Assembly (NCBI GenBank): GCA_003220475.1
Contig: QHSO01000015.1
Coordinates: forward strand, 12,479 to 76,478
Source of the DNA: Candidatus Rokuibacteriota bacterium
GTDB lineage: Bacteria > Methylomirabilota > Methylomirabilia > Rokubacteriales > CSP1-6
DNA: 64,000 nt
Direction: 5' to 3'
In this document: piece by piece, positions 1-44,446 of the stretch
How the letters are laid out: the number at the start of each line of letters is the position of its first letter
How positions within the stretch are numbered: position 1 is the stretch's first letter
Notes under the pieces: model-generated
Told to the model about the DNA's origin: nothing
The model's input: the letters and a program-made list of their open reading frames with translations, nothing else
Database searches by the model: none
Position numbers and translations under genes: made by a program

Positions 1-255
1 CTGCGCGTGGACAGCGACGTCGTGCGGGTCTGCGAGGAAACGCGTCGGCCGTTGCGGGGCCAGGCCGGAGTCTGGCGACAGGAGGCGCGCGTGGTGCGCG
101 CCACCGATGGCGGCGAGCGCCTGCGCGCGGAGGTCACGACGCCGGACGTGGAGGCGGAGTGCGACGGCCCGCAACCGACCGTGCAACGGCGAGGCATGCA
201 GGCGATGACGACGGCCGCGGTCGAGCGGCTCGTCGCAAAGATCTTCGCGCGCTGA
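1..255 (+). CDS. 3' end of an unidentified CDS that enters from upstream of the window
   Basis: Frame +1 is open from base 1 to the TGA at 253-255 and shows strong G/C third-position bias. No domain is recognisable. Confidence 0.35.
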   Translation: MRVDSDVVRVCEETRRPLRGQAGVWRQEARVVRATDGGERLRAEVTTPDVEAECDGPQPTVQRRGMQAMTTAAVERLVAKIFAR

Positions 256-261
256 CCGCGC

Positions 262-1167
262 TCAGCTGGGCAGCGCGACGTTGCCGTCGGGCTCGCGCAC
301 GTTGCCCTCGCGCGCCCGCGTGCGGATGGCGACCACCTGCCGGCCCTCGGGGTCCTTCACCTCGAACTCCTCGATGAGGCCCGCCGCGAGCAGCTGCTGT
401 ACCAGCGTCTCGCGCTCCTGCCCAGCCGGCGGCAGCGCGTGCGACTTCCAGCGCATGACGAAATAGCCGCGACTCACGTGCGGCAGCCGCGCTTCCGCGC
501 GCTGCAGCTCGGACAGCGCGCGGTCCAGCGTGTCTTCCGCCGGCGGCGACAGCGTCGCCGGACCGAAGGCCGGGCGCGGCCCGCGCAGCGGGACGCCGCG
601 CTCGCGGTCCAGGAGCCGCGGACGCTCGACGCGAAACGCGGCGATGCCGTCGCTCAGCCGGATCTGGCCGAAGCAGCGCACGCGCAGATCGGTCGAGAGC
701 TCTTCGGCGGACCACGTCGCCACCCACACCTGTTTGCCGAGCGCGTTGACGGCTTCTACCGCAGGCACGAAATCGTCGTCGCCCGAGATCAGGACGGCGG
801 CGTCGTACGCGCCGTTGGCCGCGTAATGGATTAAATCCGCCACGAGCCGGGTGTCGACGCGCTTCTCCGTCGTGTACTCGTACTCGCTGCCGCAGTTCGG
901 GCATCGGCCCGTCCGTCGCACGCGCGGATCGCGCTTGACGAAGTAGCCGGGCCGCAGCTCCAGGCCCTTGAGGAATGCTTCGACCTGCTGCGGCGCGCCG
1001 GACGACACGCCGACGTAGTAGTACGCGCCGCCGAACACGGCGCCATCGCCGCCGACCTTCTGCGTGATCCAGAGGGCGAGCCGGTCGTAGTCGACGCGGA
1101 GGGATTCGTCATACCGCAGCAGCGAGCGGTAGAAGTTCTGCCCGTCAAAGAAAATGCAGATCTTCAT
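262..1167 (-). CDS. NYN/LabA-like (PIN-fold) domain protein with an inserted zinc ribbon and an unassigned C-terminal domain
   Basis: 301-aa ORF. The N-terminus reads KICIFFDGQNFY ... LISGDDDFVPAV, typical of LabA/NYN. A CPNCGSEYEYTTEKRVD CxxC insert is present. About 120 aa at the C-terminus are unassigned. Confidence 0.8.
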   Translation of the reverse strand: MKICIFFDGQNFYRSLLRYDESLRVDYDRLALWITQKVGGDGAVFGGAYYYVGVSSGAPQQVEAFLKGLELRPGYFVKRDPRVRRTGRCPNCGSEYEYTTEKRVDTRLVADLIHYAANGAYDAAVLISGDDDFVPAVEAVNALGKQVWVATWSAEELSTDLRVRCFGQIRLSDGIAAFRVERPRLLDRERGVPLRGPRPAFGPATLSPPAEDTLDRALSELQRAEARLPHVSRGYFVMRWKSHALPPAGQERETLVQQLLAAGLIEEFEVKDPEGRQVVAIRTRAREGNVREPDGNVALPS

Positions 1168-1191
1168 AATGCCGCGATCCTACCACGGCCT

Positions 1192-1491
1192 TTGGCGCCG
1201 CGCCGAACTTGCCCCGCGCGCAAGAGCCCGACCGCCGGGCCGCTCGCCGAGCACGGAAAATGCGCCGGCCAGATCCCGAGAAGACGCGAAACGAAACGGC
1301 GGGTCATCGCCGGGGACTTGCCGCGTCTGGCCGGCTTCCGGATCTGGTCGTGGGTCAGCACGGGGCGGACGTGCGATGGCTGCGGCGAAGTCGTGGGCGC
1401 CGCGGAGATCCAGCACGACGTCGACGTCGGCGGTACGGTCGTGCTGCGGCTTCACCCCGAGTGCTTCCGCGCGTGGTCCGTCGAGGATTAA
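1192..1491 (+). CDS. small hypothetical protein (start uncertain; only the C-terminal ~55 codons look coding)
   Basis: The 3' part (RTCDGCGEVV...LHPECFRAWSVED) has good GC3 bias. There is no in-frame ATG. The candidate starts are TTG at 1192 or TTG at 1318. Its TAA overlaps the convergent receiver-gene stop within TTAA. Confidence 0.25.
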   Translation: MAPRRTCPARKSPTAGPLAEHGKCAGQIPRRRETKRRVIAGDLPRLAGFRIWSWVSTGRTCDGCGEVVGAAEIQHDVDVGGTVVLRLHPECFRAWSVED

Positions 1492-1916
1492 TCGGGCGGC
1501 GGGTCGTCCGGATGGCTGCGCAGCGCGAGCGCGGCCAGCACCGCGTCGACCACGCCTTCGGGACGCACGGGCTTGGCCACGTACGCGTCGAAGCCGGCGT
1601 CGAGAATTTCTTCACGGGCGACGACGGCGGTGACGGCAACGACCGGAATCATCTGTGTGCGTTGCGAGCCGCGCAGCTGCTCGAGCAGCCAGAAACCGTC
1701 GTGGCCCGGTAGCATGATGTCGGTGACGATGACGTGCGGTCGCACCGTGCGGAGAATCGCCAGCGCCTCTTCGGCGCTCGCGGTGCCGAGGACCATCGCG
1801 CCCTCGTAATCGAGCATCGCGCAGAACACGTCGCGCGCGTCCTTGTCGTCCTCGACGACCAGCACGTGGCGGCCGACGAGGCTTCCGACCGGGTTCAGCG
1901 CGTAGCGAACATCCAT
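1488..1916 (-). CDS. stand-alone response regulator receiver domain (CheY-like)
   Basis: The protein runs MDVRY...HVLVVEDDKDARDVF...PHVIVTDIMLPGHDG...VVAVTA...AYVAKP, which are the classic receiver motifs, and has no output domain. I chose the ATG at 1916; the track ORF extends to 2009. Confidence 0.85.
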   Translation of the reverse strand: MDVRYALNPVGSLVGRHVLVVEDDKDARDVFCAMLDYEGAMVLGTASAEEALAILRTVRPHVIVTDIMLPGHDGFWLLEQLRGSQRTQMIPVVAVTAVVAREEILDAGFDAYVAKPVRPEGVVDAVLAALALRSHPDDPPPD

Positions 1917-2025
1917 GAGGCTCTCTTCTACAAGCAAGCCTATCGCCACCCACCATCGGCGACTCGCACGTTCTGGATGTGGAAAACCTTTCGGCGCCGC
2001 CGGCAGCAATTACAAGGATGCTGGA

Positions 2026-2102
2026 TGGTGGCCGATGCTGGATTCGAACCAGCGACCTCGTGCATGTGAGGCACGCGCTCTAACCAACTGAGCTAATCGG
2101 CC
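2026..2102 (-). tRNA. tRNA-Val (anticodon CAC), CCA encoded
   Basis: The reverse complement reads GGCCGAT TA GCTC AGTTGGTTA GAGC G CGTGC CTCACAT GCACG AGGTC GCTGG TTCGAAT CCAGC ATCGGCC ACCA. All four cloverleaf stems pair, and the anticodon loop is CT-CAC-AT. Confidence 0.93.
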
Positions 2103-2192
2103 GTGCCCGTGAATCTACAGAGTTAGCCGCGCCTAGTCAATCGTCCGGCGCCGGAATAATCGCCATTCCCCGCGCGCCGGAAGTGGCAGGAT

Positions 2193-3326
2193 ATGGCGGT
2201 GCGTCGCGTCCTGATCCTCACCGCCTCTTATGGTTCGGGCCATAACGAGGCCGCGCGCTGCGTGGCGGCGGAGGTCGTCCGGCGCGGCGCCGAGCCGCTC
2301 GTCGTCGATCACTTCCGCGAGCTCGTGCACCCCGTCTTCGATCGCGCCACGCGCGCCCTGTATCTGACGCTCCTGCGTCGCCTGCCGGCGGTGTGGGGCC
2401 TCGCCTACGCCCTGGGCGACCGTCTTACGAGCGACTCGCCGCTCACGTTCGGCGCTTCACGGATGGGTGCGCGGCGTCTCGCCGCGGCTCTCGAGCGGTA
2501 CGCCCCCGACGCCGTTGTCACCGTGCACGCCACCCCCGCCGTCGCCATGGCGGCTCTCGCGCGCGCCGGCGGACGCGTGCCACCGCACACGACGGTGGTG
2601 ACCGACTTCGTCGCGCATGCGCAGTGGATCGCGCACGGCATCGACCGTTACTGCGTGGCTGCCGAGGAGGTCGGCCATGATCTCGTCGCGCGTGGCATTC
2701 CCCGCGACCGCGTGGTGGTGACCGGCGTGCCGGTGCGCGCGGCGTTCGCGACCGCATCGGACCCGCGCGAGGCGCGGCGCGAACTCGGTGTGCCGGACGA
2801 CGTGCCCATGGTGCTCGCGATGGCGGGCTCCCACGGTTCGGTCGGGCGCCTGCCCGACGTCGCGCGGGCGCTCGCGCGCGCGCCGCGTCCGCTCGCGGGC
2901 ATGCTGGTCGCCGGCCACGACCACACGCTGCGCGCGACGCTCGAGCGCCTCGCCGCCGGCACGTCGCTCCGCGTGCTCGGCTTCGTGCCCGACGTCCACC
3001 GACTCATGGCCGCCGCGGACATCGTCGTCACCAAGGCGGGCGGCATGACGCTGGCGGAGGCGATGGCCGTGCAGGTGCCGCTGCTGTTCTACGGCTCCCT
3101 GCCCGGTCAGGAGCGTCGCAACGAGCGGTTCGCGGCGGCGGCGGGCGTCGCGCTGGTCGCGCGCCGTCGCGCCGATCTGGACCGGCTGCTCGACCGAGCG
3201 CTGCGCGATCCCGAGCTGCTCGAGCATCTGCGCGAGGCGATGCGCGCGCGTGGACGTCCCGACGCCGCCCGCGCCGTCGTCGATCTCGTGCTCGCGGACT
3301 GCGCGCGCGCCGGAGTGTCGCGGTGA
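2193..3326 (+). CDS. GT28-family glycosyltransferase (MGDG synthase / UgtP-like diacylglycerol glycosyltransferase)
   Basis: 377 aa. The N-terminus VLILTASYGSGHNEAA and the C-terminus VVTKAGGMTLAEAMA...P are typical of the MGDG_synth plus Glyco_tran_28_C architecture. Confidence 0.8.
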   Translation: MAVRRVLILTASYGSGHNEAARCVAAEVVRRGAEPLVVDHFRELVHPVFDRATRALYLTLLRRLPAVWGLAYALGDRLTSDSPLTFGASRMGARRLAAALERYAPDAVVTVHATPAVAMAALARAGGRVPPHTTVVTDFVAHAQWIAHGIDRYCVAAEEVGHDLVARGIPRDRVVVTGVPVRAAFATASDPREARRELGVPDDVPMVLAMAGSHGSVGRLPDVARALARAPRPLAGMLVAGHDHTLRATLERLAAGTSLRVLGFVPDVHRLMAAADIVVTKAGGMTLAEAMAVQVPLLFYGSLPGQERRNERFAAAAGVALVARRRADLDRLLDRALRDPELLEHLREAMRARGRPDAARAVVDLVLADCARAGVSR

Positions 3327-4021
3327 TCGGTCAGGCGTTGGGCTGGGGCACCGGCGTAGGGGCCGCCGCGTGGGTCGGTTATGCGTGGCTGCCGCACCTG
3401 CTCACGCCGCTGTGCGCACGACGCGGCCCGCGCACCGGCCGTCGCGTGGCATTGAGCTTCGACGATGGCCCGGATCCCGACTGGACAGCACGCGTCCTGG
3501 AGATCCTCGCGAAGCACGACGTGAGCGCGACGTTCTTTCTCGTGGGCGAGCGCGCGGCACGCGCCCCCGCGAGCGTGCGCGCCATCGCCGGCGCCGGCCA
3601 CGAGATCGGCTCGCACAGCTGGTCGCACACGAGCCTGTGGCTGTGCGGCCCGCGCCGCACCGAGCGTGAGATCGCCCAGACGAAGCACCTGCTCGGCGAT
3701 CTCGCGGGCGCTCCCCCGGCGCTCTTCCGCCCACCATGGGGCATGGTCAACGCGGCGATGTTCGCGGCGCTCCGCCGCCACGCGCAGCGCTGCGTGTTCT
3801 GGTCGATCCAGCCGGAAGGTCTGCGGCCGGCGCCGGCCGAAGTCCAGGTCGCGCACGTGCTGCGGCGGGCGCACGCCGGCGCCATCGTCGACCTGCACGA
3901 TGCGGAGGGGACGCCAGGTGCGCCCGCGCGTCTCTGCGAGGCGTTGCCCGCGATGATCGACGGCCTGCGAGCGGCGGGTTACGGCTTCGCGACCGTGGGC
4001 GAGCTGCTCGCCGTCTCCTGA
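3323..4021 (+). CDS. polysaccharide deacetylase (NodB homology domain)
   Basis: The motifs LSFDDGPDP, ATFFLVG, GHEIGSHSWSH and FRPPWG are present. The GTG start overlaps the upstream TGA (GTGA). Confidence 0.85.
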   Translation: MIGQALGWGTGVGAAAWVGYAWLPHLLTPLCARRGPRTGRRVALSFDDGPDPDWTARVLEILAKHDVSATFFLVGERAARAPASVRAIAGAGHEIGSHSWSHTSLWLCGPRRTEREIAQTKHLLGDLAGAPPALFRPPWGMVNAAMFAALRRHAQRCVFWSIQPEGLRPAPAEVQVAHVLRRAHAGAIVDLHDAEGTPGAPARLCEALPAMIDGLRAAGYGFATVGELLAVS

Positions 4022-4076
4022 CGCCGCCGCGCCAGGAAGCGCACGAACTCCAGTCCCTCGCCGAGCCGGCGCTTCA

Positions 4077-5309
4077 TCACCGTGCGATCGCGCAGCATCT
4101 CGGCACCGAGCGCGACGAGCTGCCGCCCTCGAGCGCCTGCTCATAGAGCGCGGTGCCCGGGTACGGCGCGGCGAGCGAGACCTGCAGCGTGTGCGGATCG
4201 ATCTCCTGCGCGAAGCGAATGGTGGTCTCGATCGTCTCGCGCGTCTCGCCGGGCAGGCCGAGGATGAACGTCCCGTGGATATTGATGCCGAGCGCGCGCG
4301 CCGCCCGTGTGAACTCGCGCGCGCGATCCACGCGCGTGCCCTTGCGCACGTTGTTGAGAATGGTCTGGCTGCCCGACTCGTAGCCGACCAGGAGCAGCCG
4401 CAGCCCGTTGTCGCGAAAGACCTTGAGGCTCGCCGCCGGCACGTCGGCCTTGGCGTTGCACGACCAGGTGACGCCGAGCCGACCGAGCCCACGGGCGATC
4501 GCCTCCGCGCGCGGCAGGTCGTCGGTGAACGTGTCGTCGTCGAAAAAATATTCTTTCACCTGCGGGAAGAGTCGTCGCGCGTGGGCGATCTCGGCGACCA
4601 CGTTGTCGACGGACCGCGTGCGGTAGCGATGGCCACCCACCGTCTGCGGCCAGAGGCAGAACGTGCACTTCGAGCGGCAGCCGCGGCCCGTATAGAGCGA
4701 GAGGTACGGGTGCTGCAGATACCCGATGGCGTAGTGCTCGACGTCCAGATCGCGCGCGTACACGTCGACCACCCACGGCAGCGAGTCCATGTCCTCGAGG
4801 ACCGGACGCTCGGGCGTGCGGCGCAGCTCGCCGCCGATGTCGCGGTAGGAAAGCCCGGCGACCGACGCCGGCGGTCGTCCCTCGGCGATCTCGCGGATGG
4901 TGAAGTCGAACTCGTTGCCGCACACGAAGTCGAGCGCGGGCGACGCCGCCAGCGCGGCCTCTCGCTGCACGGCGACGTGCGCGCCGATCAGCCCGATCCG
5001 CAGCGCCGGGTTCTCGCCTTTCAGTGCCTCCGCGACCTTGACGTCGTGGGCGAACGACGGCGCGCTGGTGTGCAGGACGGCCAGCTCGTACTCGCGCGCG
5101 AGCGGCAGCACGTCGGCGAGCGTGAGGTCGGCGGGCGGCGCGTCGACGAGACGCGAGCCCGGCACGAGCGCCGCCGGCTGAGCGAGCCAGGTCGGATACC
5201 AGAACGACCGGATCTCGCGCCGCGCCTGGTAGCGCGAGCCGGCGCCGCCGTCGAAACCCTGAAACGATGGGGGATGAAGGAAGAGGGTCCGAAAAGTCAC
5301 GCGCCCCAT
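4077..5309 (-). CDS. hpnJ: HpnJ-family B12-binding radical SAM protein; the C-terminus appears disrupted (see findings)
   Basis: The N-terminus FLHPPSFQGFDGGAGSRYQARREIRSFWYPTWLAQPAAL and the radical SAM motif GRGCRSKCTFCLWPQT match my recollection of the HpnJ family (TIGR03471). The ORF ends abnormally after LYEQALEGG. A family-like C-terminal motif lies in another frame. Confidence 0.8.
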   Translation of the reverse strand: MGRVTFRTLFLHPPSFQGFDGGAGSRYQARREIRSFWYPTWLAQPAALVPGSRLVDAPPADLTLADVLPLAREYELAVLHTSAPSFAHDVKVAEALKGENPALRIGLIGAHVAVQREAALAASPALDFVCGNEFDFTIREIAEGRPPASVAGLSYRDIGGELRRTPERPVLEDMDSLPWVVDVYARDLDVEHYAIGYLQHPYLSLYTGRGCRSKCTFCLWPQTVGGHRYRTRSVDNVVAEIAHARRLFPQVKEYFFDDDTFTDDLPRAEAIARGLGRLGVTWSCNAKADVPAASLKVFRDNGLRLLLVGYESGSQTILNNVRKGTRVDRAREFTRAARALGINIHGTFILGLPGETRETIETTIRFAQEIDPHTLQVSLAAPYPGTALYEQALEGGSSSRSVPRCCAIAR

Positions 5310-5318
5310 CTTAGCCGA

Positions 5319-5675
5319 TCAGGTCCGCGACACCAGGAAGACGCCCAGCACGATGAAGCCGATGCCCGTCCACCGCAGCGGCGTGACCGCCTCGGCCAGC
5401 ATGAGCTGCGCGAGCAACGCGACGATGATGTAGTTGAGCGTCGTGAGCGGCAGCACCTTGCTCACGTCTTCGCGCGAGAGCAGCGCCATGTAGATGAAGA
5501 AGAAGGCGGCCTGCAGCGCCACGCCGAGCAGCACCCAGGGATTCGACAGCGTGCGGCCGAGCGGCGAGCCGACGGCCGCGGCGCCGACGACCTTCATCCC
5601 CTTGGCTAGAATGACGTGGCCGACGCCGCCGAGCAGGCTGGCGATAGCGACCCACAGCAGCGTGGTCGCCATCAC
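5319..5675 (-). CDS. small four-helix EamA/DMT-superfamily membrane protein (ArnE/ArnF-size)
   Basis: 118 aa and entirely hydrophobic, with four predicted helices and an EamA-like C-terminal GIGFIVLGVFLV. The start (GTG 5675 or ATG 5672) overlaps the upstream stop. Confidence 0.7.
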   Translation of the reverse strand: MMATTLLWVAIASLLGGVGHVILAKGMKVVGAAAVGSPLGRTLSNPWVLLGVALQAAFFFIYMALLSREDVSKVLPLTTLNYIIVALLAQLMLAEAVTPLRWTGIGFIVLGVFLVSRT

Positions 5676-6088
5676 AACGCCTTACCGATGGCCGACAGAA
5701 TCCCGCGCTCGACTTGTTTGTCGGACGCCGTGGCGATCGGCTCGTCCTTGTCCATCCAGAGGATGCGCTCGCGCTTGAAGACGTCGCGCTCGACGGTCAC
5801 GGTCGTCCGATTGTCGCTCGCCGCCTTCACGTAGAGCGTCAGCCGGTGCCGGCGGCCCTTCGCATACACGACGTAGTTGTCGCCGTCGACGCGCTGCGAT
5901 TCGGTGCCGATCATGCCGATGGTCCGGTCTTTCTTGTCGATGTCCCAGCCGAGCTGCTTGAGCACCGCCTCCGTGACCGTCCAGACACGCTCGACGGGCG
6001 CGTTGAACGTCTGCGCCACGGGCTCACCGGCCTGGGCCGCGCTGGCCAGGACGACCACGAGCGCCAGCGTGCAGATCAACGTTCGCAT
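5672..6088 (-). CDS. exported hypothetical protein (signal peptide)
   Basis: 138 aa. The signal peptide is MRTLICTLALVVVLASAAQA. A GAGGAGG RBS precedes the ATG. No family is recognised. Confidence 0.65.
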   Translation of the reverse strand: MRTLICTLALVVVLASAAQAGEPVAQTFNAPVERVWTVTEAVLKQLGWDIDKKDRTIGMIGTESQRVDGDNYVVYAKGRRHRLTLYVKAASDNRTTVTVERDVFKRERILWMDKDEPIATASDKQVERGILSAIGKAL

Positions 6089-6103
6089 TCGGGCCTCCTC
6101 ACA

Positions 6104-6787
6104 TCAATGCGGTCGTAAGCGTCCACCGGCCAGCGTGTAGACCGCGTGGGCGCCGTGGGCGGCGTCGGGCCGATGGCTCACCACGATCACCGCACCGCCC
6201 TCGCGTGCCCGCGCGCGCAACGATTCTAGAATCACCTCGCCGTTGGCGTCGTCGAGATTGCCGGTTGGCTCGTCCGCGAGCAAGAGGGGCGGGTCGTTGA
6301 GCACCGCGCGGCAGAACGCGACGCGCTGCTGCTCGCCGCCCGAGAGCTGGGCGGGATGGTGATCGCGACGCTCCCCCACGCCGAAACGCTCGAGCAGGGC
6401 CATCGCTCGGCGGCGCCGCTCGGCATCGACGCCGGTGGTGTAGCGCGCGCCGAGCAGCACGTTCTCGAGCGCCGTCAGCGCCGGCAGCAGCAGAAACGAC
6501 TGGAACACGAATCCGAGCCAGCGGCCGCGCTCGCGGCTCTTGGCTCCGCGCCCGAGCGTGCTCACGGGGCGGTCGGCGAAGCAGACCTCGCCCGCATCGG
6601 CGTCTTCGAGCAACCCGAGGACGTTGAGCAGCGTGCTCTTGCCCGAGCCCGAAGGCCCCTCGATCACCACGAGCTCGCCGCGGCGCACGACGAGATCCAC
6701 GCCGGCCAGCACCTCGATCGGCGCACCCGCCGGCGCCGCGAAGCGCTTCACCAGCCCGCGCGCGGTGAGGACCGTCTCAGGCGGCAC
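6104..6787 (-). CDS. ABC transporter ATP-binding protein (MacB/LolD/FtsE type)
   Basis: Walker A GPSGSGKST, signature LSGGEQQRV and Walker B LLLADEPTGNLD are present. 227 aa. The GTG start overlaps the permease end by 11 nt. Confidence 0.9.
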   Translation of the reverse strand: MPPETVLTARGLVKRFAAPAGAPIEVLAGVDLVVRRGELVVIEGPSGSGKSTLLNVLGLLEDADAGEVCFADRPVSTLGRGAKSRERGRWLGFVFQSFLLLPALTALENVLLGARYTTGVDAERRRRAMALLERFGVGERRDHHPAQLSGGEQQRVAFCRAVLNDPPLLLADEPTGNLDDANGEVILESLRARAREGGAVIVVSHRPDAAHGAHAVYTLAGGRLRPH

Positions 6788-7991
6788 TGCCCCTCCGAAT
6801 GGCCTCGGCGGGTGAGAGCCGCACGATGCGCAGCGCCGCGTACGCCGCGGCCGCCGCGCCGAGCAGCAGCGAGAACACGAGCGTGCCGCCGAGCAGCCGC
6901 GGCGAGAACAGGAACAGCTGCTGGCCGCTGCGGCGCGCCCAGCCGTCGATGCCGTGACCGAGCGCCAGCGCCAGCACGATCCCCACCGCGCCGCCCGAGA
7001 CCGTCACCGCGAGCGCCTCGGCGAGGATCTCGCCGCCGAGCTGCCAGTCGGTCGCGCCGAGCGCGCGCTTCACGCCGAAGTCGCGGACGCGCTCGAACAC
7101 CGCCGCCGCCACCGTGTTGGCGAGCGACAGCCCGCCGATGACGAACGCGAGCAGCCCGAGGCCGACGAGGAGTGCGGAGAAGAAGGCGGTCGACTGCCGC
7201 AGCAGCGACGACAGCTCGCTGGGGAGCTGGACGTTGACACCGGCGACACGATCCCGGATGCGCCGCGCGACGACGTCGGGATCTTCGCCCTCGCGCCAGC
7301 CGACGGCGGCGCCCGTATTGAGATCCTGCGCGCGCAGCGCGACGCCGCCGGAGGCCAGGACGGTGCGCAGCAGCCGATCCTTGGACACCCATTGATCGCG
7401 CGCATCCTCGATCGAGACGATGACGAAGCGATCGGGCGCGGTCAGCATCCGCTCGAGCACACCGACGACCTCGTACGGCTGGCCTTCCAGCTCGAGACGC
7501 GATCCGACCGCGAGACGCCGCGAGGCGGCGAACGAGGCGCCGATGACGGCCTTGCGACGATCGCCCTCGCGCAGGAACCGTCCCTCCTGCACGGGCAGCG
7601 TGCGGTAGTGGCGATTGGGTGACGGCACCGAGAGATCCATGCCGAGCACGAGTTCCTGCGTGAGCGTCATGAACTGCGAGGTGCTGGGATTGAGCGGCAG
7701 CATCACCTGTGGCTGCACCACCGCGACGCCGTCGACCGTGCGTATCGCCTCGACGGCCGCCGCCGGCAGCAGGCCACCGGCGGTGAAGCCGGCGCCCATG
7801 CCCATCCCCCGCCCCGCGACCGAGATCTGGCCGAGCACGAACCGATCGCCGCCCTCGATGAAGCGCACGATACGCTCGGCCATCGCGCCGAGCGCGACGA
7901 TGCCCGCGACGCCGATGGCAATGCCGGCGATGGTGAACAGGTAACCGCGAAGGACCCGACGCAACGCGTTGATCAGGCTCGCACGCCGCAT
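6777..7991 (-). CDS. ABC transporter permease, FtsX/MacB-like with a periplasmic domain
   Basis: 404 aa. An N-terminal transmembrane helix is followed by a ~200-aa periplasmic region and a C-terminal FtsX-type three-helix bundle (FGVKRALGAT...). Confidence 0.85.
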   Translation of the reverse strand: MRRASLINALRRVLRGYLFTIAGIAIGVAGIVALGAMAERIVRFIEGGDRFVLGQISVAGRGMGMGAGFTAGGLLPAAAVEAIRTVDGVAVVQPQVMLPLNPSTSQFMTLTQELVLGMDLSVPSPNRHYRTLPVQEGRFLREGDRRKAVIGASFAASRRLAVGSRLELEGQPYEVVGVLERMLTAPDRFVIVSIEDARDQWVSKDRLLRTVLASGGVALRAQDLNTGAAVGWREGEDPDVVARRIRDRVAGVNVQLPSELSSLLRQSTAFFSALLVGLGLLAFVIGGLSLANTVAAAVFERVRDFGVKRALGATDWQLGGEILAEALAVTVSGGAVGIVLALALGHGIDGWARRSGQQLFLFSPRLLGGTLVFSLLLGAAAAAYAALRIVRLSPAEAIRRGSAA

Positions 7992-8031
7992 CGCAGACTC
8001 GCCTCGGCCGTGGAACGGCCTGCGGCTCGCA

Positions 8032-9297
8032 CTACCACTCCAGCCTGGACTCGATGGGGAGGCCGGCGCGGCGGCGGAGCCAGCCGTTGAGGCGGGTCAG
8101 GCCGTAGAGGATCCGCAGCGCGAGGCGCAGGCGGAGCGGCGACGTCACCCAGTTGCCGCCGGACAGGACGTTGAGCACCGCCTCGTAGATGCCGAAGTGG
8201 TTGCGCGGGCGCATGAAGAGGTCGAAGAACGCCGGCTCGTAGTACTTGTGGATGAACTTGAACAGCGGCGCGAGACCGGCGCGCACGCGGCGTTCGTAGG
8301 CCGCGAAGCGCCGCGCCGAGAAATCGCCGGCCCGGAACGCTTCGGTAATCGCCGCCGCCGCCAGCTGACCCGTGCGCAGCGCGATGTAGACGCCGCCGGA
8401 GAAGATCGGATCCACGAACGCGATCGCGTCGCCGACGGCGACGTAGCGATCGCCGACCACCGGCGAGTTGTCGTAGGCGAAGCTGGCCTGCCGGTGCACC
8501 GGCGTCACGCGCACGGCGCCAGCAAGAGCCTCGGACACGCCGCGGCTGCGCGCAACCATCGCGTAGAAGAGCGCCTCGAGCTCACCCGTCCACGCTTTGA
8601 CCGTGCGCGCGTGGCAGACAGCGCCCACGCTGGTGAGACCGCCCGCGAGCGGGATCCACCAGAGCCAGCCTTCGCGCATGACATAGATGCGGATGTTGCC
8701 TTCGTCGCGGCCCGACTGGCGGGCGGCGCCCTTGAAATGCGCGAAGAGCGCGACCTTGCCGAGATTCGGAATGCGGCGGCGCCGGCCGTAGCGGCTGGCC
8801 ATGAGCGCGTCGCGGCCGGTGGCGTCCACGAGCATCGCGGCCCGGACGCGCGGGGCTCCGCTCTCGCTGCTCGCCGTGACGGTGACGCCGTCGGCATTGA
8901 ACTCCGTCGCCTCGACCGACGCCGGCTGATAGACCGTGACGCCGCGCTTCTTGGCGTGCTCCAGGAGGACGGTGTCGAACTCGGCGCGCGGCACCTGATA
9001 GGAGTAGTTCGGCCACGGCTGGCCGGGCAGGAAATAGAAGGTCTGCGCGCCGCCCGTCTCCTCGTCGTGAAAGCTGGCGCCATACTTCAGCTGGAACCCG
9101 CGCTCATCCATCGCGGCCCTGACGCCGAGCTGCTCCAGCAGGAGCATGCTGGCTGGCATCAACGACTCGCCGACGTGAAAGCGCGGGAAACGCTCGCGCT
9201 CGAACAGCGCCACGCGCAGCCCCGCGTCGGCGAGGAACGTGGCGGTGCTGGAGCCGCCGGGTCCGCCGCCGGCGACGATGACGTCGAAGGCGTCCAT
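8032..9297 (-). CDS. FAD-dependent halogenase-like oxidoreductase
   Basis: The protein has DVIVAGGGPGGS (GxGxxG), FPRFHVGESL, GFQLKYGASF (candidate catalytic Lys) and GWLWWIPL, which is the WxWxIP motif characteristic of flavin halogenases. The real start is the ATG at 9297; the track ORF carries a spurious N-terminal extension. Confidence 0.8.
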   Translation of the reverse strand: MDAFDVIVAGGGPGGSSTATFLADAGLRVALFERERFPRFHVGESLMPASMLLLEQLGVRAAMDERGFQLKYGASFHDEETGGAQTFYFLPGQPWPNYSYQVPRAEFDTVLLEHAKKRGVTVYQPASVEATEFNADGVTVTASSESGAPRVRAAMLVDATGRDALMASRYGRRRRIPNLGKVALFAHFKGAARQSGRDEGNIRIYVMREGWLWWIPLAGGLTSVGAVCHARTVKAWTGELEALFYAMVARSRGVSEALAGAVRVTPVHRQASFAYDNSPVVGDRYVAVGDAIAFVDPIFSGGVYIALRTGQLAAAAITEAFRAGDFSARRFAAYERRVRAGLAPLFKFIHKYYEPAFFDLFMRPRNHFGIYEAVLNVLSGGNWVTSPLRLRLALRILYGLTRLNGWLRRRAGLPIESRLEW

Positions 9298-10346
9298 CAG
9301 GACCCTGTCCACGCCGTGCCGACCGCCATCGCCGCCGGCGCGGGCTCCGCGTGCAGACGCTGCTGCGCGTAGAGGGCCACGATGAGCGCCGTCAGCGCCG
9401 GCACCCGCAACCCGGTCAACGCGGCCAGCACGAGCAACGGCAGCACCAGCGGCAGCCCCAGCACCGCGGTCGCCGCCGCCACCGCGCGACGCGGCCGTGG
9501 ATGGCGCCACCACCACGCGAGCCGACCGCCGGCGCGGCGCACGGCGAGCAGCGCGATCATCGATCCCCACGTCATCCCGCCCGCGTACGGCGCCGCCGTC
9601 TCGAGGAGCGCGGCGTGTCGCTCGCGGGCCAGGCGCCCGGCCACGACCGACGCGATCTCGCCGCCGGCCGCCGCCACCTCGCGCGCGCCGCGCGCGATCG
9701 AGCGGCCGGCGAGGTGCGCGCCGATCGCAATCCCGTCGACGACGGGACGGAACCGGCTGCGCGCCGCCACGCGCGGCAGCGCGCGCACCGGCACTTCGCG
9801 GATCGTCCAACCGTGCCCGGCCGCCGCCAGCAACACCTCCGTCTCGAACACGAAGCCGCCGTGGTGCGCGGACACCTCGTCGAAGATCTCGAGCGGATAG
9901 ACGCGAAAGCCAGACTGCGTGTCGATCAGCCGCAGTCCGCTCGCCCAGTTGACGAAGAAGCCGGCGACCACGATGGCCTCGGCGCGGCCCGGCGGCAGCG
10001 CCGCGTCGCCGTAGAGCCGCGCGCCCACGACCAGCGTGCGCGGTGCGGCGGCGGCGAGCAACGCCGGCACGTCATCCGAGTCGTGCTGGCCGTCGGCATC
10101 CAGCGTGACGACGTGCGTGGCGCCGCGCGCGCGCGCCGCCGCCACGCCCGTGCGCAGCGCCTCCGCCTTGCCGCACCGCCGCCGATGACGGCAAACGTCG
10201 GCGCCGGCGAGCGCCGCCGCCTGCGCGGTCCCGTCGGTCGAGCCGTCGTCCACCACGATGACCGGTGCGTGCCGGCGCGCGCGGCGCACGACGTCGCCGA
10301 CCGTGGTGGCCTCATCGTGCGCGGGGACGACGACGAACGTGTTCAC
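9297..10346 (-). CDS. family 2 glycosyltransferase (DPM1/ArnC/ApeJ-like) with a C-terminal membrane anchor
   Basis: The motifs are VVVPAHDEATTVGDVV, VIVVDDGSTDGT and VTLDADGQHD (DxD). C-terminal transmembrane helices are present. The GTG start at 10346 forms a GTGA overlap with the upstream stop. Confidence 0.8.
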   Translation of the reverse strand: MNTFVVVPAHDEATTVGDVVRRARRHAPVIVVDDGSTDGTAQAAALAGADVCRHRRRCGKAEALRTGVAAARARGATHVVTLDADGQHDSDDVPALLAAAAPRTLVVGARLYGDAALPPGRAEAIVVAGFFVNWASGLRLIDTQSGFRVYPLEIFDEVSAHHGGFVFETEVLLAAAGHGWTIREVPVRALPRVAARSRFRPVVDGIAIGAHLAGRSIARGAREVAAAGGEIASVVAGRLARERHAALLETAAPYAGGMTWGSMIALLAVRRAGGRLAWWWRHPRPRRAVAAATAVLGLPLVLPLLVLAALTGLRVPALTALIVALYAQQRLHAEPAPAAMAVGTAWTGS

Positions 10347-11413
10347 GCGGCGTCCACGAGCAACGCCACGTGGGCGCCGCCGCGCGCGAGCCCGTGCACG
10401 AGCCCGCGTCCCGGCCGGACACGCGCGACGTGCGCCGTGCCGTTCACGACGGGCAGCAGACCGGAGCGCGCCGTCCACGCGGCGGCCGCGACGCGCAGCA
10501 CGCCTAATCCCGCGTGACGGCCGAGCAGCCGGCCGAGGCTCGACACCGGTGGCCCGCCGGGAAGCGCGGCGCCGAGCACCGCTTCTTCCCAACGATCGCG
10601 CGGCTCGTCATCGCTGGCTGATGCGTACACCCAGCCGACGTCGCCGGGCTGCGCGCCCGCCGCGCGCAACACGGCCTCGATCGCCTGTGAGCGGCGGGCG
10701 CGTCCGACGCCCCATGGACGGGAACGCAGCGCGCGCCAGGCCGCTGCGCTCACCTCGCCCAGCACCGTGGCGCCGCGCGCGTGCGCCGTCGCGCGTGGCT
10801 CGAGCACGAGGAACGCCGCCCCCTCGCCGCGACGCTCACCGGCGAGCCCCAGCCGCCTCAGCTCGTGCTCGACGACGGAATCGAGCTCGTCGACGCCGCC
10901 CACGAGCACCGCCGGCACGCGCCCGCTCGCGACCGCCGCCGTCGCGCGGGCGACCGCAAGCTCGCCGGCCACGGTCGGCGCATTGAGCGTCAGCGCCATC
11001 TCCCGCGCGCCGACCGCGATGGCCGTCGTCGCGATCATCGTGTTCATCACCGTGTTCGGAAAGAGCAGGGCGGACAGTCCCGCCGGGCCGCGGGCGAGGA
11101 AGCCGTCGGCGAACGCGTGCGTCGAGCCGAGGTCGCCGAATTCCGTCCCCACGACGAGTCCGAGCGCGGCGTCACGCTCGAGCCCGGACTCGCGCAGCGC
11201 CAGCCGTGCCGCGGTCACGGTCAGCTGGCAGACGCGCGACAGTCGCCGCGCTTCGTCCGGATCGACGAGAGCGGCGAGCGCGCCGGCGCCGAACGCGGTG
11301 TCCGGCGGTGCCACGGGGGCCGCGAGGAACGCACCGAGCGCCGCGGAGTCGCCGGTGACGGCGGCGCTCACGACGCCGACGCCGGTGATCGCGACGCCGG
11401 ACCGCGTCGTCAT
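10343..11413 (-). CDS. beta-ketoacyl synthase-like protein lacking the active-site Cys (chain-length-factor-like)
   Basis: 356 aa with a thiolase-fold KS pattern (ITGVGVVSA...). The nucleophile position reads LNAPTVAGE instead of TACSS. ATGA overlap with the upstream KS. Confidence 0.75.
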   Translation of the reverse strand: MTTRSGVAITGVGVVSAAVTGDSAALGAFLAAPVAPPDTAFGAGALAALVDPDEARRLSRVCQLTVTAARLALRESGLERDAALGLVVGTEFGDLGSTHAFADGFLARGPAGLSALLFPNTVMNTMIATTAIAVGAREMALTLNAPTVAGELAVARATAAVASGRVPAVLVGGVDELDSVVEHELRRLGLAGERRGEGAAFLVLEPRATAHARGATVLGEVSAAAWRALRSRPWGVGRARRSQAIEAVLRAAGAQPGDVGWVYASASDDEPRDRWEEAVLGAALPGGPPVSSLGRLLGRHAGLGVLRVAAAAWTARSGLLPVVNGTAHVARVRPGRGLVHGLARGGAHVALLVDAA

Positions 11414-12594
11414 GCCACGCCGCGGCGGAAGAGCAACGTCACGTTCTGACCGCCGAATCCGAACGAATTGGAGATCGCGCACGTCAGCGGCGCGGCGCGC
11501 GAGACGCGCGGCACACAGTCGAACGGCACGTCCCCGTCCGGCGTGACGAGGTTCGCCGTCGGCGGCACGACGCCGTGCTCGAGCGCGAGCACGGTGGCGA
11601 TCGCCTCGAGGCTGCCGGCGGCGGCCATCGTGTGGCCGATCATCGACTTCGCGGAGGAGACGAGCAGTCCGCCCTCGCCGAAGACCCGTGCGAGCGCGCG
11701 GGCCTCGATGCGATCGTTTTGCGGCGTGCCGGTGCCGTGCGCGTTGGCGTACTGCACCTCCGCCGGCGCGGCGCCCGCCACTCTCAGCGCCGCCGTCATC
11801 GCGCGCACCATGCCGTCGCCCTCGGGTTCCGGCGCCGTCACGTGGAACGCATCGGTCGTCATGCCGTGCCCCGCGAGCGTCGCGTACACGCGCGCGCGTC
11901 GCGCGCGGGCACGCGCCTGGGACTCGAGCACCAGGAAGCCGGCGCCCTCGCCGATCGACATCCCGCGGCGCTCCTGATCGAACGGACGGCACGGCGCCGG
12001 ATCGAGAATCTTCAGCGCGTTGAAGCCCATGAAGCAGATGCGGGTGATCGCGTCGACACCGCCGGCGACCGCGACGTCGACCACACCGTCGGCGATCAGC
12101 TCGGCCGCCTCCGCGAGCGCGACCGCGCCCGAGCTGCACGCCGTGACGACCGTGTGCCGCGGACCGCCGAGGCCCAAGCGGCTCGACAGCGTTTCGGCGT
12201 GCGCGGAGGGCAGCATGGCGCGTACCGCGCGGACGGAGGCGGGCCGCGCGCCCTCGCGCGCGCCGCGCCAGTACCACGCCTCGGCCTCCAGCATGCCGCC
12301 GCCGACGGCGCCGACGACGAGCGCCGCCGCGCGGCAATCGCGCGCGCCGAGGCCCGCATCCGCGAGGGCCTCGGCGGCGGCGGCGATGGCCAGACGGTCG
12401 GCGCGCGTGCGGCGCGCCGAGCCCGCAGGCGTTCCGGGGACCTCCGCGCCGATCCGGCAGCGGAAGCCCTCGGTCTCGATCAGCGTGAGGTCGCGGATCG
12501 TGCAGACGCCGGCGGCGAGCCCCTTCCAGTACGCGACGAGCCCCGCGCCGTATGGACTGACGGCGCCGAGGCCGGTGATGACGACCGACTTCAT
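11410..12594 (-). CDS. beta-ketoacyl-ACP synthase (FabF-like KS)
   Basis: 394 aa. The active-site motifs TACSSG, HGTGTPQND and GHTMAAAG are present, and the C-terminus reads NSFGFGGQN. Confidence 0.9.
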   Translation of the reverse strand: MKSVVITGLGAVSPYGAGLVAYWKGLAAGVCTIRDLTLIETEGFRCRIGAEVPGTPAGSARRTRADRLAIAAAAEALADAGLGARDCRAAALVVGAVGGGMLEAEAWYWRGAREGARPASVRAVRAMLPSAHAETLSSRLGLGGPRHTVVTACSSGAVALAEAAELIADGVVDVAVAGGVDAITRICFMGFNALKILDPAPCRPFDQERRGMSIGEGAGFLVLESQARARARRARVYATLAGHGMTTDAFHVTAPEPEGDGMVRAMTAALRVAGAAPAEVQYANAHGTGTPQNDRIEARALARVFGEGGLLVSSAKSMIGHTMAAAGSLEAIATVLALEHGVVPPTANLVTPDGDVPFDCVPRVSRAAPLTCAISNSFGFGGQNVTLLFRRGVA

Positions 12595-12866
12595 GCGGAG
12601 GGCAGCTTCCCTGCGATGAACCGCGACAGCGTGTCGAAGGAGGCGAAATGCTCGGAGAGATCCTGGTTTTCGTCCAGGGCGATGCCGAAGCGCTCTTCGA
12701 TCGCGATCGACAGTTCGATGAAGTCGAGGGAGTCGAGGCCGATCGAGCCTTCGATGCCCTTGGGCAGCGGCGTCGACTCGGTGGTCTCCGCTGCGCGCCG
12801 CGGATCGAACTTCAGACGCGATACCAGGACCGTCTTCAGCTCGTCGAGGACTTCCTTGGCTTCCAT
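12591..12866 (-). CDS. acyl carrier protein
   Basis: 91 aa. GLDSLDFIEL is the phosphopantetheine attachment motif. A strong AGGAGGG RBS precedes the ATG at 12866. The stop forms an ATGA overlap with the KS start. Confidence 0.85.
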   Translation of the reverse strand: MEAKEVLDELKTVLVSRLKFDPRRAAETTESTPLPKGIEGSIGLDSLDFIELSIAIEERFGIALDENQDLSEHFASFDTLSRFIAGKLPSA

Positions 12867-12873
12867 GACCCTC

Positions 12874-13749
12874 CTATGTTGCGACCGCGATCTGCGCGCG
12901 CCGGCCGCGCCAGCGCCCGGTGACGCGCGCGATCGGCATTCCGGCGGCACGCGCGAGCGCCAGCTCCACGAGCGGCGCGCACGCGAGCGTCTCGCCCGCC
13001 CGGCGCGTGACCAGCGTCTCGAGCGTCGAGGCGGCGCCGGGACCGTATCCTATGTCCGCGTCGTCAGCGCCCGCGAGCACGGCGCACGCCGCGGCCTCCA
13101 CCAGCGGGCGCGGCGTCACCCAGCGGCCGCGCGTCCAGAGATCCGCACATTCCTCGAACGTCTCCACCGCGAGCACGAGCGCGAGATCGGCGTCGCCGGC
13201 CGCGAGCAGCGTACTCGCCTGCCACAGCGCGTCCACGCCGGCCGATGCCCCGCCCACAAGAATGACATACCCGCCCGTCAACCCATACTCGATCGCGACC
13301 TCGGCTGGCACCGAGCTCGGAGCCGTGTACGGAAAATAGATGGCGCCGCCCGTTTTCGCGCGGCCGGCACCCTCGGTCGCGCCCGGACTCTGGGCCTCGA
13401 TCGCGACAACGCCGTCCGGTCCGCCGTTCGCCCGGACCTGGCTCGCGGCCTCGGCCACGATGAAGCGCTTGTTGCTCGCGCCGTATGCCGCCGCCGTCAC
13501 GTACACCAGCGCCGTCCGCGACCCGGCCACGGCCGCCCGATCCAGAGCGCTGTCGCGCAGCGCCGCTCCCACCGCGGCCACCCCCAGCAGGCACTCGCGC
13601 GTCGCGCGCCGGAATCGCTCGCCGGCGATGGCCGGCGTCGCCATCGGCACCACGCGGCGCTCACCCGCGGCGCGGCGCGCGTCGTCGGGCAGCGCGGCGA
13701 CGCCCTCGCCCCACGCGGTCAGCAGGCCGACGCCGAGGACGCGCGTCAC
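12874..13749 (-). CDS. truncated KS-like protein without a catalytic Cys (second CLF-like partner)
   Basis: 291 aa with a KS N-terminal-like fold. The nucleophile position reads LVGGASAGVDAL. The GTG start forms a GTGA overlap with the upstream KS stop. Confidence 0.65.
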   Translation of the reverse strand: MTRVLGVGLLTAWGEGVAALPDDARRAAGERRVVPMATPAIAGERFRRATRECLLGVAAVGAALRDSALDRAAVAGSRTALVYVTAAAYGASNKRFIVAEAASQVRANGGPDGVVAIEAQSPGATEGAGRAKTGGAIYFPYTAPSSVPAEVAIEYGLTGGYVILVGGASAGVDALWQASTLLAAGDADLALVLAVETFEECADLWTRGRWVTPRPLVEAAACAVLAGADDADIGYGPGAASTLETLVTRRAGETLACAPLVELALARAAGMPIARVTGRWRGRRAQIAVAT

Positions 13750-36924: not shown

Positions 36925-36960
36925 GCGCCACTCCTTTTCTGCGAAAGGGTTGGACGACCC

Positions 36961-37131
36961 GCTCCGGGCAGGTTTCCTGACTCGTGGATCGACGCGACCG
37001 CCCATGCCTTCCCATCGCGTGTTGCAGCTCGCGACAGTGGCTCCCGCGTAACTTTTGGACCTGGACGGCGCTCCCCACTCACAGTGGCGCGACCGTGCCG
37101 GCATCTCACCGGCTTCCCTCGCACCCGGAGC
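36961..37131 (-). promoter_or_regulatory. cobalamin riboswitch upstream of btuB
   Basis: The minus strand reads GCTCCGGG...GGGAAGCCGGTGAGATGCCGGCACGGTCGCGCCACTGTGA...GGGAGCCACTG...GGGAAGGC...GAGTCAGGAAACCTGCCCGGAGC. This includes the B12 box and a closing P1 helix GCTCCGGG/CCCGGAGC. Confidence 0.85.
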
Positions 37132-37155
37132 GCGTGAGCACGAACGACTTGCCTC

Positions 37156-44182: not shown

Positions 44183-44216
44183 GCCCAGGTCCTCCCGCGA
44201 AGACCGGAATCGCAAG

Positions 44217-44362: not shown

Positions 44363-44446
44363 CCGGGCGCCCGGGCGCGAACAACGCCGGAACGGTATCA
44401 GATGACCGGCCGGCATCGCAACCGCCCGGGCCGCCGGGGTTCGGGC

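Follow-up and report, generated by a model that had tools for sequence, protein, structure and literature searches.

The locus described here raises the question of which lipid is modified by HpnJ, the cobalamin (B12)-dependent radical SAM enzyme of hopanoid side-chain tailoring, when its gene lies among genes of other kinds. It is located in a 64,000-nt stretch of DNA from Candidatus Rokuibacteriota bacterium (GCA_003220475.1, contig QHSO01000015.1, positions 12,479-76,478 of the forward strand), referred to as the window. In it, hpnJ stands between a glycosyltransferase gene of family GT28 coupled to a NodB-type deacetylase gene and an operon with the genes of a complex lipid pathway. A non-hopanoid substrate had been proposed in the initial annotation, which was made from the sequence alone, on the ground that hopanoid core genes were missing from the window. 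The preferred answer is a different one. The GT28 and NodB enzymes would replace HpnI and HpnK and give bacteriohopanetetrol (BHT)-glucosamine and, through HpnJ, its cyclitol ether, in connection with an acylation and export operon that resembles aryl-polyene (APE) clusters. This reading is given an even chance of being correct. In the present assembly, hpnJ itself is inactivated by a 133-bp frameshifting deletion, or mis-assembled.

The G+C content of the window is ~71%, because of which it contains many spurious open reading frames (ORFs). Real genes were picked by third-position G+C (GC3) and cross-checked against the gene calls of near-identical public contigs. Gram-negative-type functions are encoded (TonB, a TonB-dependent receptor, FtsH, and cobalamin salvage genes), and the nearest relatives are Candidatus Rokubacteria/Methylomirabilota metagenome-assembled genomes (MAGs) and soil metagenome contigs. 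Four same-species contigs (L085-L088) are 99.3-99.8% identical to the window over positions 1-13193. Two collections of loci were compared: the best 80 genome hits of an hpnJ search, the closest of them 84% identical, which were used for locus, copy-number, and tree comparisons, and 80 Rokubacteria-type loci returned by a metagenome scan seeded with a GT28 alignment. Operon-linked hpnJ loci are called type A, and their main group A1. The GT28, NodB, HpnJ, EamA, and GT2 ORFs of the initial annotation all exist at the coordinates given for them and belong to the families named there. The head-group part of the locus consists of the following features.

2193-3326, plus strand: MGDG-synthase/UgtP-like glycosyltransferase of family GT28; Pfam MGDG_synth 86.5 bits and Glyco_tran_28_C 31.7 bits, both above cutoff.
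3323-4021, plus strand: NodB-fold (CE4) deacetylase; Pfam Polysacc_deac_1 111.9 bits; N-terminal transmembrane segment.
3979-5309, minus strand: hpnJ, B12-binding radical SAM enzyme (TIGR03471), disrupted; the remaining ORF 4077-5309 encodes 410 aa.
4116-4122, no strand: junction of the 133-bp deletion inside hpnJ (break 4121/4122), with CGAGC microhomology flanks.

The hpnJ ORF scores 651.4 bits on TIGR03471 (cutoff 577.6) and its product is 92% identical to 485-488-aa proteins named HpnJ. It has the cluster motif CRSKCTFC (CxxxCxxC) at residue 211 and a Pfam Radical_SAM match of 71.3 bits; the B12-binding match of 18.6 bits is below the cutoff of 32.1, as in its named homologues. The family assignment of the initial annotation stands, but the gene is not intact in the window. 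The TIGR03471 match covers only model positions 2-391 of 472, and the C-terminal ~80 model residues that are missing from the window are present in the same-species contigs, all four of which encode an intact 487-aa HpnJ directly after the EamA gene. In tblastn searches, residues 3-394 of full-length homologues align at 5297-4122 and residues 436-485 at 4131-3982 in another frame. The reading frame of the gene is kept as far as 4122, and the last 50 codons (4131-3982, stop 3979-3981) have been shifted out of it. What the window lacks, between the CGAGC microhomologies, are the 133 bp found at positions 11930-12062 of L085. This gap is the sole structural difference between the window and L086-L088; L085 has an additional short segment near window position 8031. 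An exact look-up of the 410-aa product in the public contig collection gave no match, which is explained by the deletion. The undeleted hpnJ spanned 5309 to 3979, overlapped the 3' end of the NodB gene by 43 bp, and formed the last, co-directional gene of the operon, 9 nt after the EamA gene. As four same-species contigs carry an intact hpnJ, and as the other genes of the locus are intact and at least 99% identical, the missing 133 bp may reflect variation between strains or else a local error of assembly or curation.

Whether this HpnJ is a hopanoid enzyme can be judged from its relatives. Most of the best 80 genome hits are classical hpnI-hpnJ(-hpnK) loci with SHC, HpnH, HpnG, HpnA, HpnL, HpnM, or HpnN nearby, and the window-type HpnJ is 66-76% identical to the HpnJ of classical hpnI-hpnJ-hpnK/shc/hpnH clusters. 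The Methylomirabilota-type HpnJ proteins form one clade in 100 of 100 neighbour-joining bootstraps. Only 1 of the 100 bootstraps groups the type A sequences as monophyletic, and they are interleaved with HpnI-linked Rokubacterial HpnJ; those of A1 join HpnI-linked or unlinked Rokubacterial HpnJ (L013, L028, L011, and L016) in 72 of 100. The mean identity to 54 canonical HpnJ proteins is 0.68 for operon-linked and HpnI-linked Rokubacterial HpnJ alike. Canonical HpnJ has 173 columns with a conservation of at least 97%; 163 of these are kept, and most of the consistent differences are common to HpnI-linked Rokubacterial HpnJ. Within the best 80 genome hits, each assembly, including the MAGs with this locus type, is represented by a single hpnJ locus. 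The interleaving in the tree, the identity of 0.68, the kept columns, and the single hpnJ locus per assembly give no sign of a diverged paralogue. Sequence comparison thus identifies this HpnJ as a true orthologue of the classical enzyme with no excess divergence. A tree had been suggested in the initial annotation, and in it the protein is not set apart from bona fide HpnJ. The tree, the identity, and the conserved columns led to the rejection of another reading, in which the protein would be an HpnJ-like paralogue that had acquired a new function.

Hopanoid genes were searched for with SHC, HpnH, HpnG, HpnI, HpnK, HpnA, HpnN, HpnL, and HpnM from classical loci as tblastn queries, all NCBIfam-verified except HpnN. 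None of them has a match in the 64-kb window, as the initial annotation had stated for shc, hpnH, hpnG, and other hopanoid genes, and none was found in the 7.8 kb beyond its left end, which are available on a same-species contig. HpnI (TIGR03472) and HpnK (TIGR03473) are also absent from every type A locus by tblastn, and the canonical hpnI-hpnJ-hpnK module is accordingly not present. The published record points to hopanoid capacity elsewhere in these genomes. Squalene cyclase proteins are listed for AR27 (L009) and NC_groundwater_303_Ag_B-0.1um_71_19 (L008), two MAGs that carry the operon-linked locus (PMC10697835 Table S1), and for nearly all Rokubacteria MAGs (PMC10697835 Table S1; PMC7306690), and SHC has been inferred to be ancestral in the phylum (PMC7306690). 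Across 62,143 surveyed genomes, the HpnJ domain was confined to those in which SHC and HpnH are also encoded (bioRxiv 10.1101/2025.07.29.667474). Given the orthology of HpnJ, the squalene cyclase of the relatives, and this confinement of the domain, the step from absent core genes to a non-hopanoid substrate is weak. The initial annotation itself was to be given up if shc was found elsewhere in a genome in which this hpnJ is the only copy; that situation is seen in the relatives AR27 and NC_groundwater_303, with a single hpnJ each among the best 80 hits.

The GT28 and NodB genes form a tight pair. The overlap of stop and start, GTGA at 3323-3326, which had already been reported in the initial annotation, couples the NodB gene translationally to the GT28 gene. 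The deacetylase has its FDDGP, HSWSH, and RPPWG motifs intact. The GT28 enzyme reaches 254 bits on the NCBIfam model of diglucosyl-diacylglycerol synthase (NF010135), below the cutoff of 500 and hence short of an equivalog-level match, and its best PDB matches are 9wde, a processive diacylglycerol glucosyltransferase (146 bits), and MGD1 4wyi (111 bits). The exact GT28 protein of the window is present in 42 blocks of the public contig collection. In the metagenome scan, the two genes are adjacent in 58 of the 61 related loci with room for both, and hpnJ follows NodB convergently in 35 of the 47 loci that have more than 1.5 kb of room. Loss of this conservation in relatives had been named as a point that would speak against the initial proposal, and the pair proved to be conserved. 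Recurrence in 13 loci found via hpnJ and in ~60 found via GT28 shows that the arrangement is not due to chance. At least 8 loci (L133, L139, L150, L152, L158, L160, L161, and L163) have no hpnJ, and NodB is directly convergent with an ArnT-like gene there; L167 has neither hpnJ nor the ArnT-like gene. The trio logic of the hopanoid pathway, with a glycosyltransferase, a deacetylase, and HpnJ, is therefore present in the window as had been supposed, in an arrangement conserved in relatives. GT28 is probably a stand-in for HpnI and NodB a stand-in for HpnK. A tRNA-Val (CAC) gene lies at 2026-2102 on the minus strand, ~90 bp upstream of the GT28 start and divergent from GT28.

On the other side of hpnJ, the operon comprises 13-14 genes that are conserved in relatives, and it is physically tied to the head-group module. 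A functional tie is probable. Its genes, in the direction of transcription, are as follows.

15829-16596, minus strand: predicted lipoprotein of 255 aa, first gene of the operon; GC3 0.90; LLTAAC lipobox; no Pfam or NCBIfam match.
14912-15841, minus strand: LPLAT-family (LpxL/PatA-like) acyltransferase of 309 aa; GC3 0.89-0.93; AHLGNWE motif; NCBIfam phosphatidylinositol mannoside (PIM) acyltransferase 110.8 bits and LpxL/LpxP 60.8 bits, both below cutoff.
12874-14951, minus strand: first ketosynthase/chain-length factor pair (KS1 13746-14951, CLF1 12874-13749); KS1 with TACASG active-site motif and 274 bits on PRK09185.
12591-12866, minus strand: acyl carrier protein (ACP) of 91 aa; NCBIfam AmcB and PRK09184 ACP matches; PP-binding calls at the same position in relatives.
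10343-12594, minus strand: second ketosynthase/chain-length factor pair (KS2 11410-12594, CLF2 10343-11413); KS2 with 357 bits on FabF-type models.
9297-10346, minus strand: GT2 polyprenyl-phosphate glycosyltransferase (ArnC/PpgS/DPM1/GtrB-like); Pfam Glycos_transf_2 64.3 bits; C-terminal hydrophobic/membrane helices.
8032-9297, minus strand: flavin-dependent halogenase-like enzyme; Pfam Trp_halogenase 102 bits; NCBIfam CmlS 190.7 bits, below cutoff; GGGPGG and WLWWIP motifs.
6777-7991, minus strand: MacB_PCD and FtsX permease; Pfam MacB_PCD 69.2 bits and FtsX 59.1 bits.
6104-6787, minus strand: ABC ATPase of the MacB/LolD/DevA type, part of the same exporter as the permease; Pfam ABC_tran 106.7 bits; NCBIfam DarD, YbbA, MacB, LolD, and DevA-like matches.
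5672-6088, minus strand: secreted protein of 138 aa with signal peptide and soluble domain; no Pfam or NCBIfam family; position conserved in relatives.
5319-5675, minus strand: half-size EamA/DMT membrane protein of 118 aa; Pfam EamA 39 bits; conserved in type A1 loci.

The acyltransferase gene is concealed within a longer spurious ORF and had been missed in the initial annotation; its product is a candidate enzyme for the transfer of the ACP-bound chain to a sugar or a lipid. For CLF1, NCBIfam gave no match and Pfam only a weak ketoacyl-synt one; the ketosynthase matches of CLF2 are weak and partial. As the FAD enzyme at 8032-9297 carries both flavin-halogenase signatures, the product of the operon may be halogenated. 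The 138-aa secreted protein is probably the periplasmic partner of the ABC exporter. The two parts of the Arn-like logic that had been read from the window, an ArnC/DPM1-like GT2 and an ArnE/F-sized EamA protein, are both present. For the GT2, the similarity is at the family level, with 112 bits on the NCBIfam model of PpgS (cutoff 370), 82.8 bits on AglJ (below cutoff), and 20.7 bits on ArnC (cutoff 529). The EamA protein matches ArnE and ArnF weakly (27.5 bits, cutoff 92, and 19.8 bits, cutoff 99, respectively) and is a candidate ArnE/F-like flippase subunit for a polyprenyl-phosphate-linked sugar.

In most relatives, an ArnT-like GT-C gene (PMT_2, 555-624 aa) is situated between EamA and hpnJ and scores 48-77 bits on the lipid IV(A) 4-amino-4-deoxy-L-arabinose (Ara4N)-transferase model, which strengthens the Arn analogy. 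It is absent from the window according to tblastn with the L004 protein, and a clean gap at 5309-5321 corresponds to L004 positions 8289-9988. The gene is also absent from the same-species contigs, L090, and the more distant L005. Since L005 shares the loss and its neighbouring genes are intact, the loss is a natural variant that seems to be stable rather than a sign of decay. An assembly artefact was considered as the cause and rejected, as the same gene order occurs in the four same-species contigs, L090, and L005.

The locus varies in other lineages. Local rearrangements notwithstanding, hpnJ remains next to the operon in MAGs of Rokubacteria, Acidoferrum, and Deferrimicrobiaceae. A second operon-linked group keeps the operon, the ArnT-like gene, and hpnJ (L020 from Acidoferrum, L025, L027 from Deferrimicrobiaceae, and L042). 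No NodB gene occurs within ±10 kb in these four loci, and GT28 is kept only in L025, divergently upstream of hpnJ. Independently of these, a GT28-like gene (30-35% identity) in actinomycete MAGs is called directly upstream of hpnJ in four of seven loci (L014, L046, L049, and L061), overlapping it by 4 bp in L049 and L061, with the pair at ~8.7-11.4 kb in each locus. A GT28 tblastn match is also present in the actinomycete locus L048, where no gene is called at that spot. The actinomycete GT28-hpnJ loci have neither HpnI nor hopanoid genes within ±10 kb, and their neighbours include no conserved deacetylase; an α/β hydrolase is found in one locus and sigma factors in others. According to a published survey, Actinomycetota have no enzymes that tailor the side chain after the HpnH step. 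Each of the three modules, the operon, hpnJ, and GT28 (accompanied by NodB or not), is found together with each of the others, and this suggests a shared pathway in which hpnJ and the ArnT-like gene provide accessory, optional tailoring steps that vary between lineages. The conservation of the GT28-NodB pair beside the operon and the presence of a GT28-like gene upstream of hpnJ in Actinomycetes make a sequence of glycosylation, deacetylation, and ring contraction well supported.

Two further proteins were observed in these comparisons. In L020 (9133-9720) and L027 (9234-9821), the ArnT-like gene and hpnJ are separated by a gene for a DedA/VTT-domain protein, which may be an alternative flippase; an EamA homologue was not detected in these two loci. 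A CopD and LiaF-TM membrane protein of ~530 aa recurs next to hpnJ in L011, L025, and L042, as well as in the classical loci L028, L030, and L040.

In the preferred mechanism, the GT28 enzyme would transfer N-acetylglucosamine (GlcNAc) onto BHT in place of the GT2 enzyme HpnI, and the membrane-anchored NodB enzyme would take the place of the YdjC-type HpnK and expose the amine to give BHT-glucosamine. HpnJ would then contract the glucosamine ring to the cyclitol ether, with shc, hpnH, and the other hopanoid core genes located elsewhere in the genome, as in relatives. The order of steps would follow the canonical scheme from BHT-GlcNAc through BHT-glucosamine to the cyclitol ether (PMC12583986; PMC13459092). 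The acceptor lipid and the sugar are putative in this scheme, and so is the role of the operon, whose tight and evolutionarily persistent linkage suggests further steps of acylation, glycosylation, and export. It may build a dedicated acyl or polyene chain, possibly halogenated, on its own ACP, and the LpxL/PatA-like enzyme may attach this chain to the sugar head group. The GT2, EamA, and ArnT-like proteins may add a further sugar on the periplasmic side, and the ABC system may export the product to the outer membrane. Loci without hpnJ would end at BHT-glucosamine and, at face value, the pathway in the present assembly would stop at the glucosamine stage as well. This fits known biology, since a naturally hpnJ-less alphaproteobacterium has BHT-glucosamine as its end product (PMC12583986). 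Moreover, hpnK is missing from Acidobacteria that have hpnI and hpnJ (PMC5462960). Nothing that describes the present arrangement of hpnJ, GT28, NodB, and the operon was found in the literature, nor anything relevant on a role of NodB or GT28 in hopanoid synthesis or on a cyclitol ether in Methylomirabilis.

Several points weigh against a hopanoid acceptor, and most of them can be read in favor of a glycolipid of another kind. No hopanoid gene occurs within ±6-10 kb of ~70 loci of this type, whereas classical hpnJ usually lies inside hpn clusters. The nearest characterised or solved GT28 relatives, 9wde and MGD1, use diacylglycerol and not a hopanoid as acceptor. Since the GT28-NodB pair is kept beside the operon where hpnJ is absent, the pair belongs to the chemistry of the operon. 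The operon shares KS/CLF, ACP, LPLAT, GT2, and halogenase genes with APE clusters, and the APE product is an acyl-N-acetylgalactosamine-phosphate-diacylglycerol, that is, an N-acetylhexosamine (HexNAc) head group on a glycerolipid (bioRxiv 10.1101/2020.12.19.423268). In addition, HpnJ has never been reconstituted in vitro (PMC13459092), and the archaeal calditol synthase Cds, mentioned in the same article, is a precedent for radical-SAM ring contraction on a non-hopanoid lipid. On this basis, GT28 could place GlcNAc on diacylglycerol or on the operon's own lipid, NodB could deacetylate it, and a co-opted HpnJ could contract the aminosugar to a cyclitol. The LPLAT enzyme would esterify the halogenated KS/CLF chain, the GT2, EamA, and ArnT-like proteins would add a periplasmic sugar, the ABC system would export the product, and the hopanoids of the cell would be unrelated to the locus. 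A co-opted enzyme of this kind is difficult to reconcile with an HpnJ that shows neither divergence nor clade separation from hopanoid-linked orthologues of the same phylum and that is the only copy found in its hosts. The tree would need two recruitments or a reversion to hpnI linkage. Furthermore, the genomes from which the HpnJ domain is reported all have SHC and HpnH, and squalene cyclase is listed for two MAGs that host the locus, AR27 and NC_groundwater_303. The non-hopanoid glycolipid, a refined form of the initial proposal and the main alternative to the hopanoid reading, is considered unlikely.

The NodB enzyme could also serve the GT2, EamA, and ArnT-like proteins in an envelope aminosugar modification of the Arn/Lgm/Flm type. 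Polyprenyl-phosphate-HexNAc would be deacetylated to polyprenyl-phosphate-hexosamine and flipped, and lipid A or a different acceptor in the envelope would receive the sugar. The LpxL-like enzyme would add a special acyl chain to lipid A, as in the rhizobial LpxXL/AcpXL system, and GT28 and hpnJ would be mere neighbours that share no substrate. NodB has the fold of ArnD/NaxD-type enzymes, and the PpgS/ArnC-like GT2, the weakly ArnE/F-like EamA protein, the GT-C match of the relatives to the Ara4N-transferase model (48-77 bits), and the LPLAT matches to LpxL-family models agree with such a route, as does the DedA/VTT protein in place of EamA in some relatives. However, NodB is coupled to GT28 and not to the GT2, EamA, or ArnT-like genes. 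It is kept in lineages that have lost the ArnT-like gene (the window, L005, and L090) and absent within ±10 kb in L020, L027, and L042, which retain that gene. NodB varies together with GT28 and not with the ArnT-like gene, and this weakens the Arn/Lgm-type reading. Sugar-nucleotide genes of the ArnA/ArnB type were not seen among the annotated ORFs either, and the reading leaves unexplained why hpnJ is repeatedly linked to the operon and to GT28-like genes. NodB as an ArnD/LgmC-type partner of the GT2, EamA, and ArnT-like proteins was accordingly ranked low, and the route as a whole is very improbable. A further alternative concerns the state of the locus rather than its substrate. The locus could be a decaying remnant in which the hpnJ step is non-functional in this genome and the ArnT-like step absent, so that no cyclitol product would arise whatever the acceptor. 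The deletion, which removes or garbles the last ~90 residues of HpnJ, the lack of the exact 410-aa product in the contig collection, and the missing ArnT-like gene are consistent with decay. On the other hand, the intact hpnJ of the four same-species contigs, the intact and at least 99% identical remainder of the locus, and the stable ArnT-like loss in L005 speak against it. Decay is regarded as somewhat doubtful, though less so than the non-hopanoid glycolipid. Caution is needed in using this assembly, as its hpnJ ORF is a truncated form of an otherwise intact population gene.

The preferred hopanoid head-group pathway can be compared with four known systems. Like the HpnI-HpnK-HpnJ pathway of Burkholderia cenocepacia, Zymomonas, and Alphaproteobacteria, it would comprise GlcNAc transfer, de-N-acetylation, and radical-SAM ring contraction. 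Its HpnJ is orthologous (~68% identity), and both have natural hpnJ-less variants, compare the strain with BHT-glucosamine only. In contrast, a GT28 enzyme with GT-B fold stands here against the GT2 enzyme HpnI and a NodB/CE4 enzyme against the YdjC-type HpnK, the gene order is convergent instead of hpnI-hpnJ-hpnK, and the acceptor lipid is putative. In place of shc, hpnH, and hpnG neighbours, there is an operon for KS/CLF, ACP, LPLAT, GT2, halogenase, and ABC proteins. With the Arn (ArnC/D/E/F/T), Bordetella Lgm, Francisella Flm/NaxD, and Gtr-type three-component systems, the locus shares a polyprenyl-phosphate GT2, a small DMT/EamA protein, a NodB-fold deacetylase, and, in relatives, an ArnT-like GT-C enzyme. 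It differs from them in that the window has no ArnT-like gene, all matches are below equivalog cutoffs, ArnA/ArnB-type genes were not seen, and NodB is coupled to GT28 instead of GT2.

APE clusters and the rhizobial AcpXL/FabF1XL/FabF2XL/LpxXL system resemble the operon in their KS/CLF heterodimer-type synthases, dedicated ACP, LPLAT/LpxL acyltransferase, GT2, halogenase (as in xanthomonadin-type clusters), and dedicated export, and the APE acyl chain is carried on a HexNAc head group. On the contrary, ketoreductase (KR), dehydratase (DH), aryl-starter, thioesterase, and methyltransferase genes are lacking from the operon. The exporter is a MacB-type ABC system instead of MMPL/LolA-like proteins, and EamA, ArnT-like, HpnJ, GT28, and NodB proteins are added. 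Compared with the published APE core set (KS, CLF, ACP, KR, two DH, and MMPL; bioRxiv 10.1101/2020.12.19.423268), no gene for KR, DH, or MMPL was found in the operon. Calditol synthase Cds of Sulfolobus acidocaldarius is alike as a radical SAM enzyme proposed to contract a lipid-bound hexose to a cyclopentyl polyol head group. It differs in being archaeal and in acting on glycerol dialkyl glycerol tetraether (GDGT) lipids, is likened to HpnJ by its chemistry alone, and bears only on the non-hopanoid alternative.

Elsewhere in the window, a 13-kb cobalamin salvage region lies ~30 kb from hpnJ, whose product is a B12-dependent enzyme. It contains two cobalamin riboswitches (88 and 94.8 bits), both on the minus strand, at 36950-37143 upstream of a block for a TonB-dependent receptor, CbiZ, and TonB, and at 44211-44389 upstream of a CobT-CobQ-type block. 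The annotated start of the TonB-dependent receptor ORF at 37104 overlaps the first riboswitch and is probably too far upstream. In the ORF at 41367-43658 (minus strand), a DBI_PRT (CobT-like) phosphoribosyltransferase appears to be fused to CobQ/CobB-type amidotransferase domains; the fusion may be genuine, or the ORF call may have joined two genes.

Producers of hopanoid cyclitol ethers are predicted from hpnI, hpnJ, and hpnK. Should Rokubacteria and Actinomycetes use GT28 and NodB in place of HpnI and HpnK, such gene-based predictions would miss a major soil phylum, and the replacement would help to explain hpnJ-positive genomes that lack hpnK. The conservation of hpnJ within an operon for KS/CLF, acyltransferase, halogenase, and ABC proteins suggests that a complex envelope lipid not yet described is made, which would be a decorated hopanoid or else a cyclitol glycolipid. 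It is tentatively suggested, as a possibility that falls short of probable, that an HpnJ-type ring contraction is built into an APE-like lipid assembly line in the abundant soil Rokubacteria and also occurs with a GT28-like gene only in Actinomycetes. The product would be either a bacterial aminocyclitol glycerolipid or polyketide lipid without a hopanoid, a counterpart of the archaeal calditol lipids, or a new composite hopanoid, and the same tentative grade covers the two together. The composite hopanoid would be a BHT-glucosamine or cyclitol ether that is acylated with a halogenated polyketide chain, glycosylated in the periplasm, and exported by the ABC system. If either is true, the presence of hpnJ or of a cyclitol ether signal is not interpretable by the canonical hpnI/hpnK model. 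The prediction is testable by heterologous expression and targeted lipidomics. The locus thus represents an alternative head-group module around a bona fide hpnJ, and its integration with the operon could hide a new class of envelope lipids.

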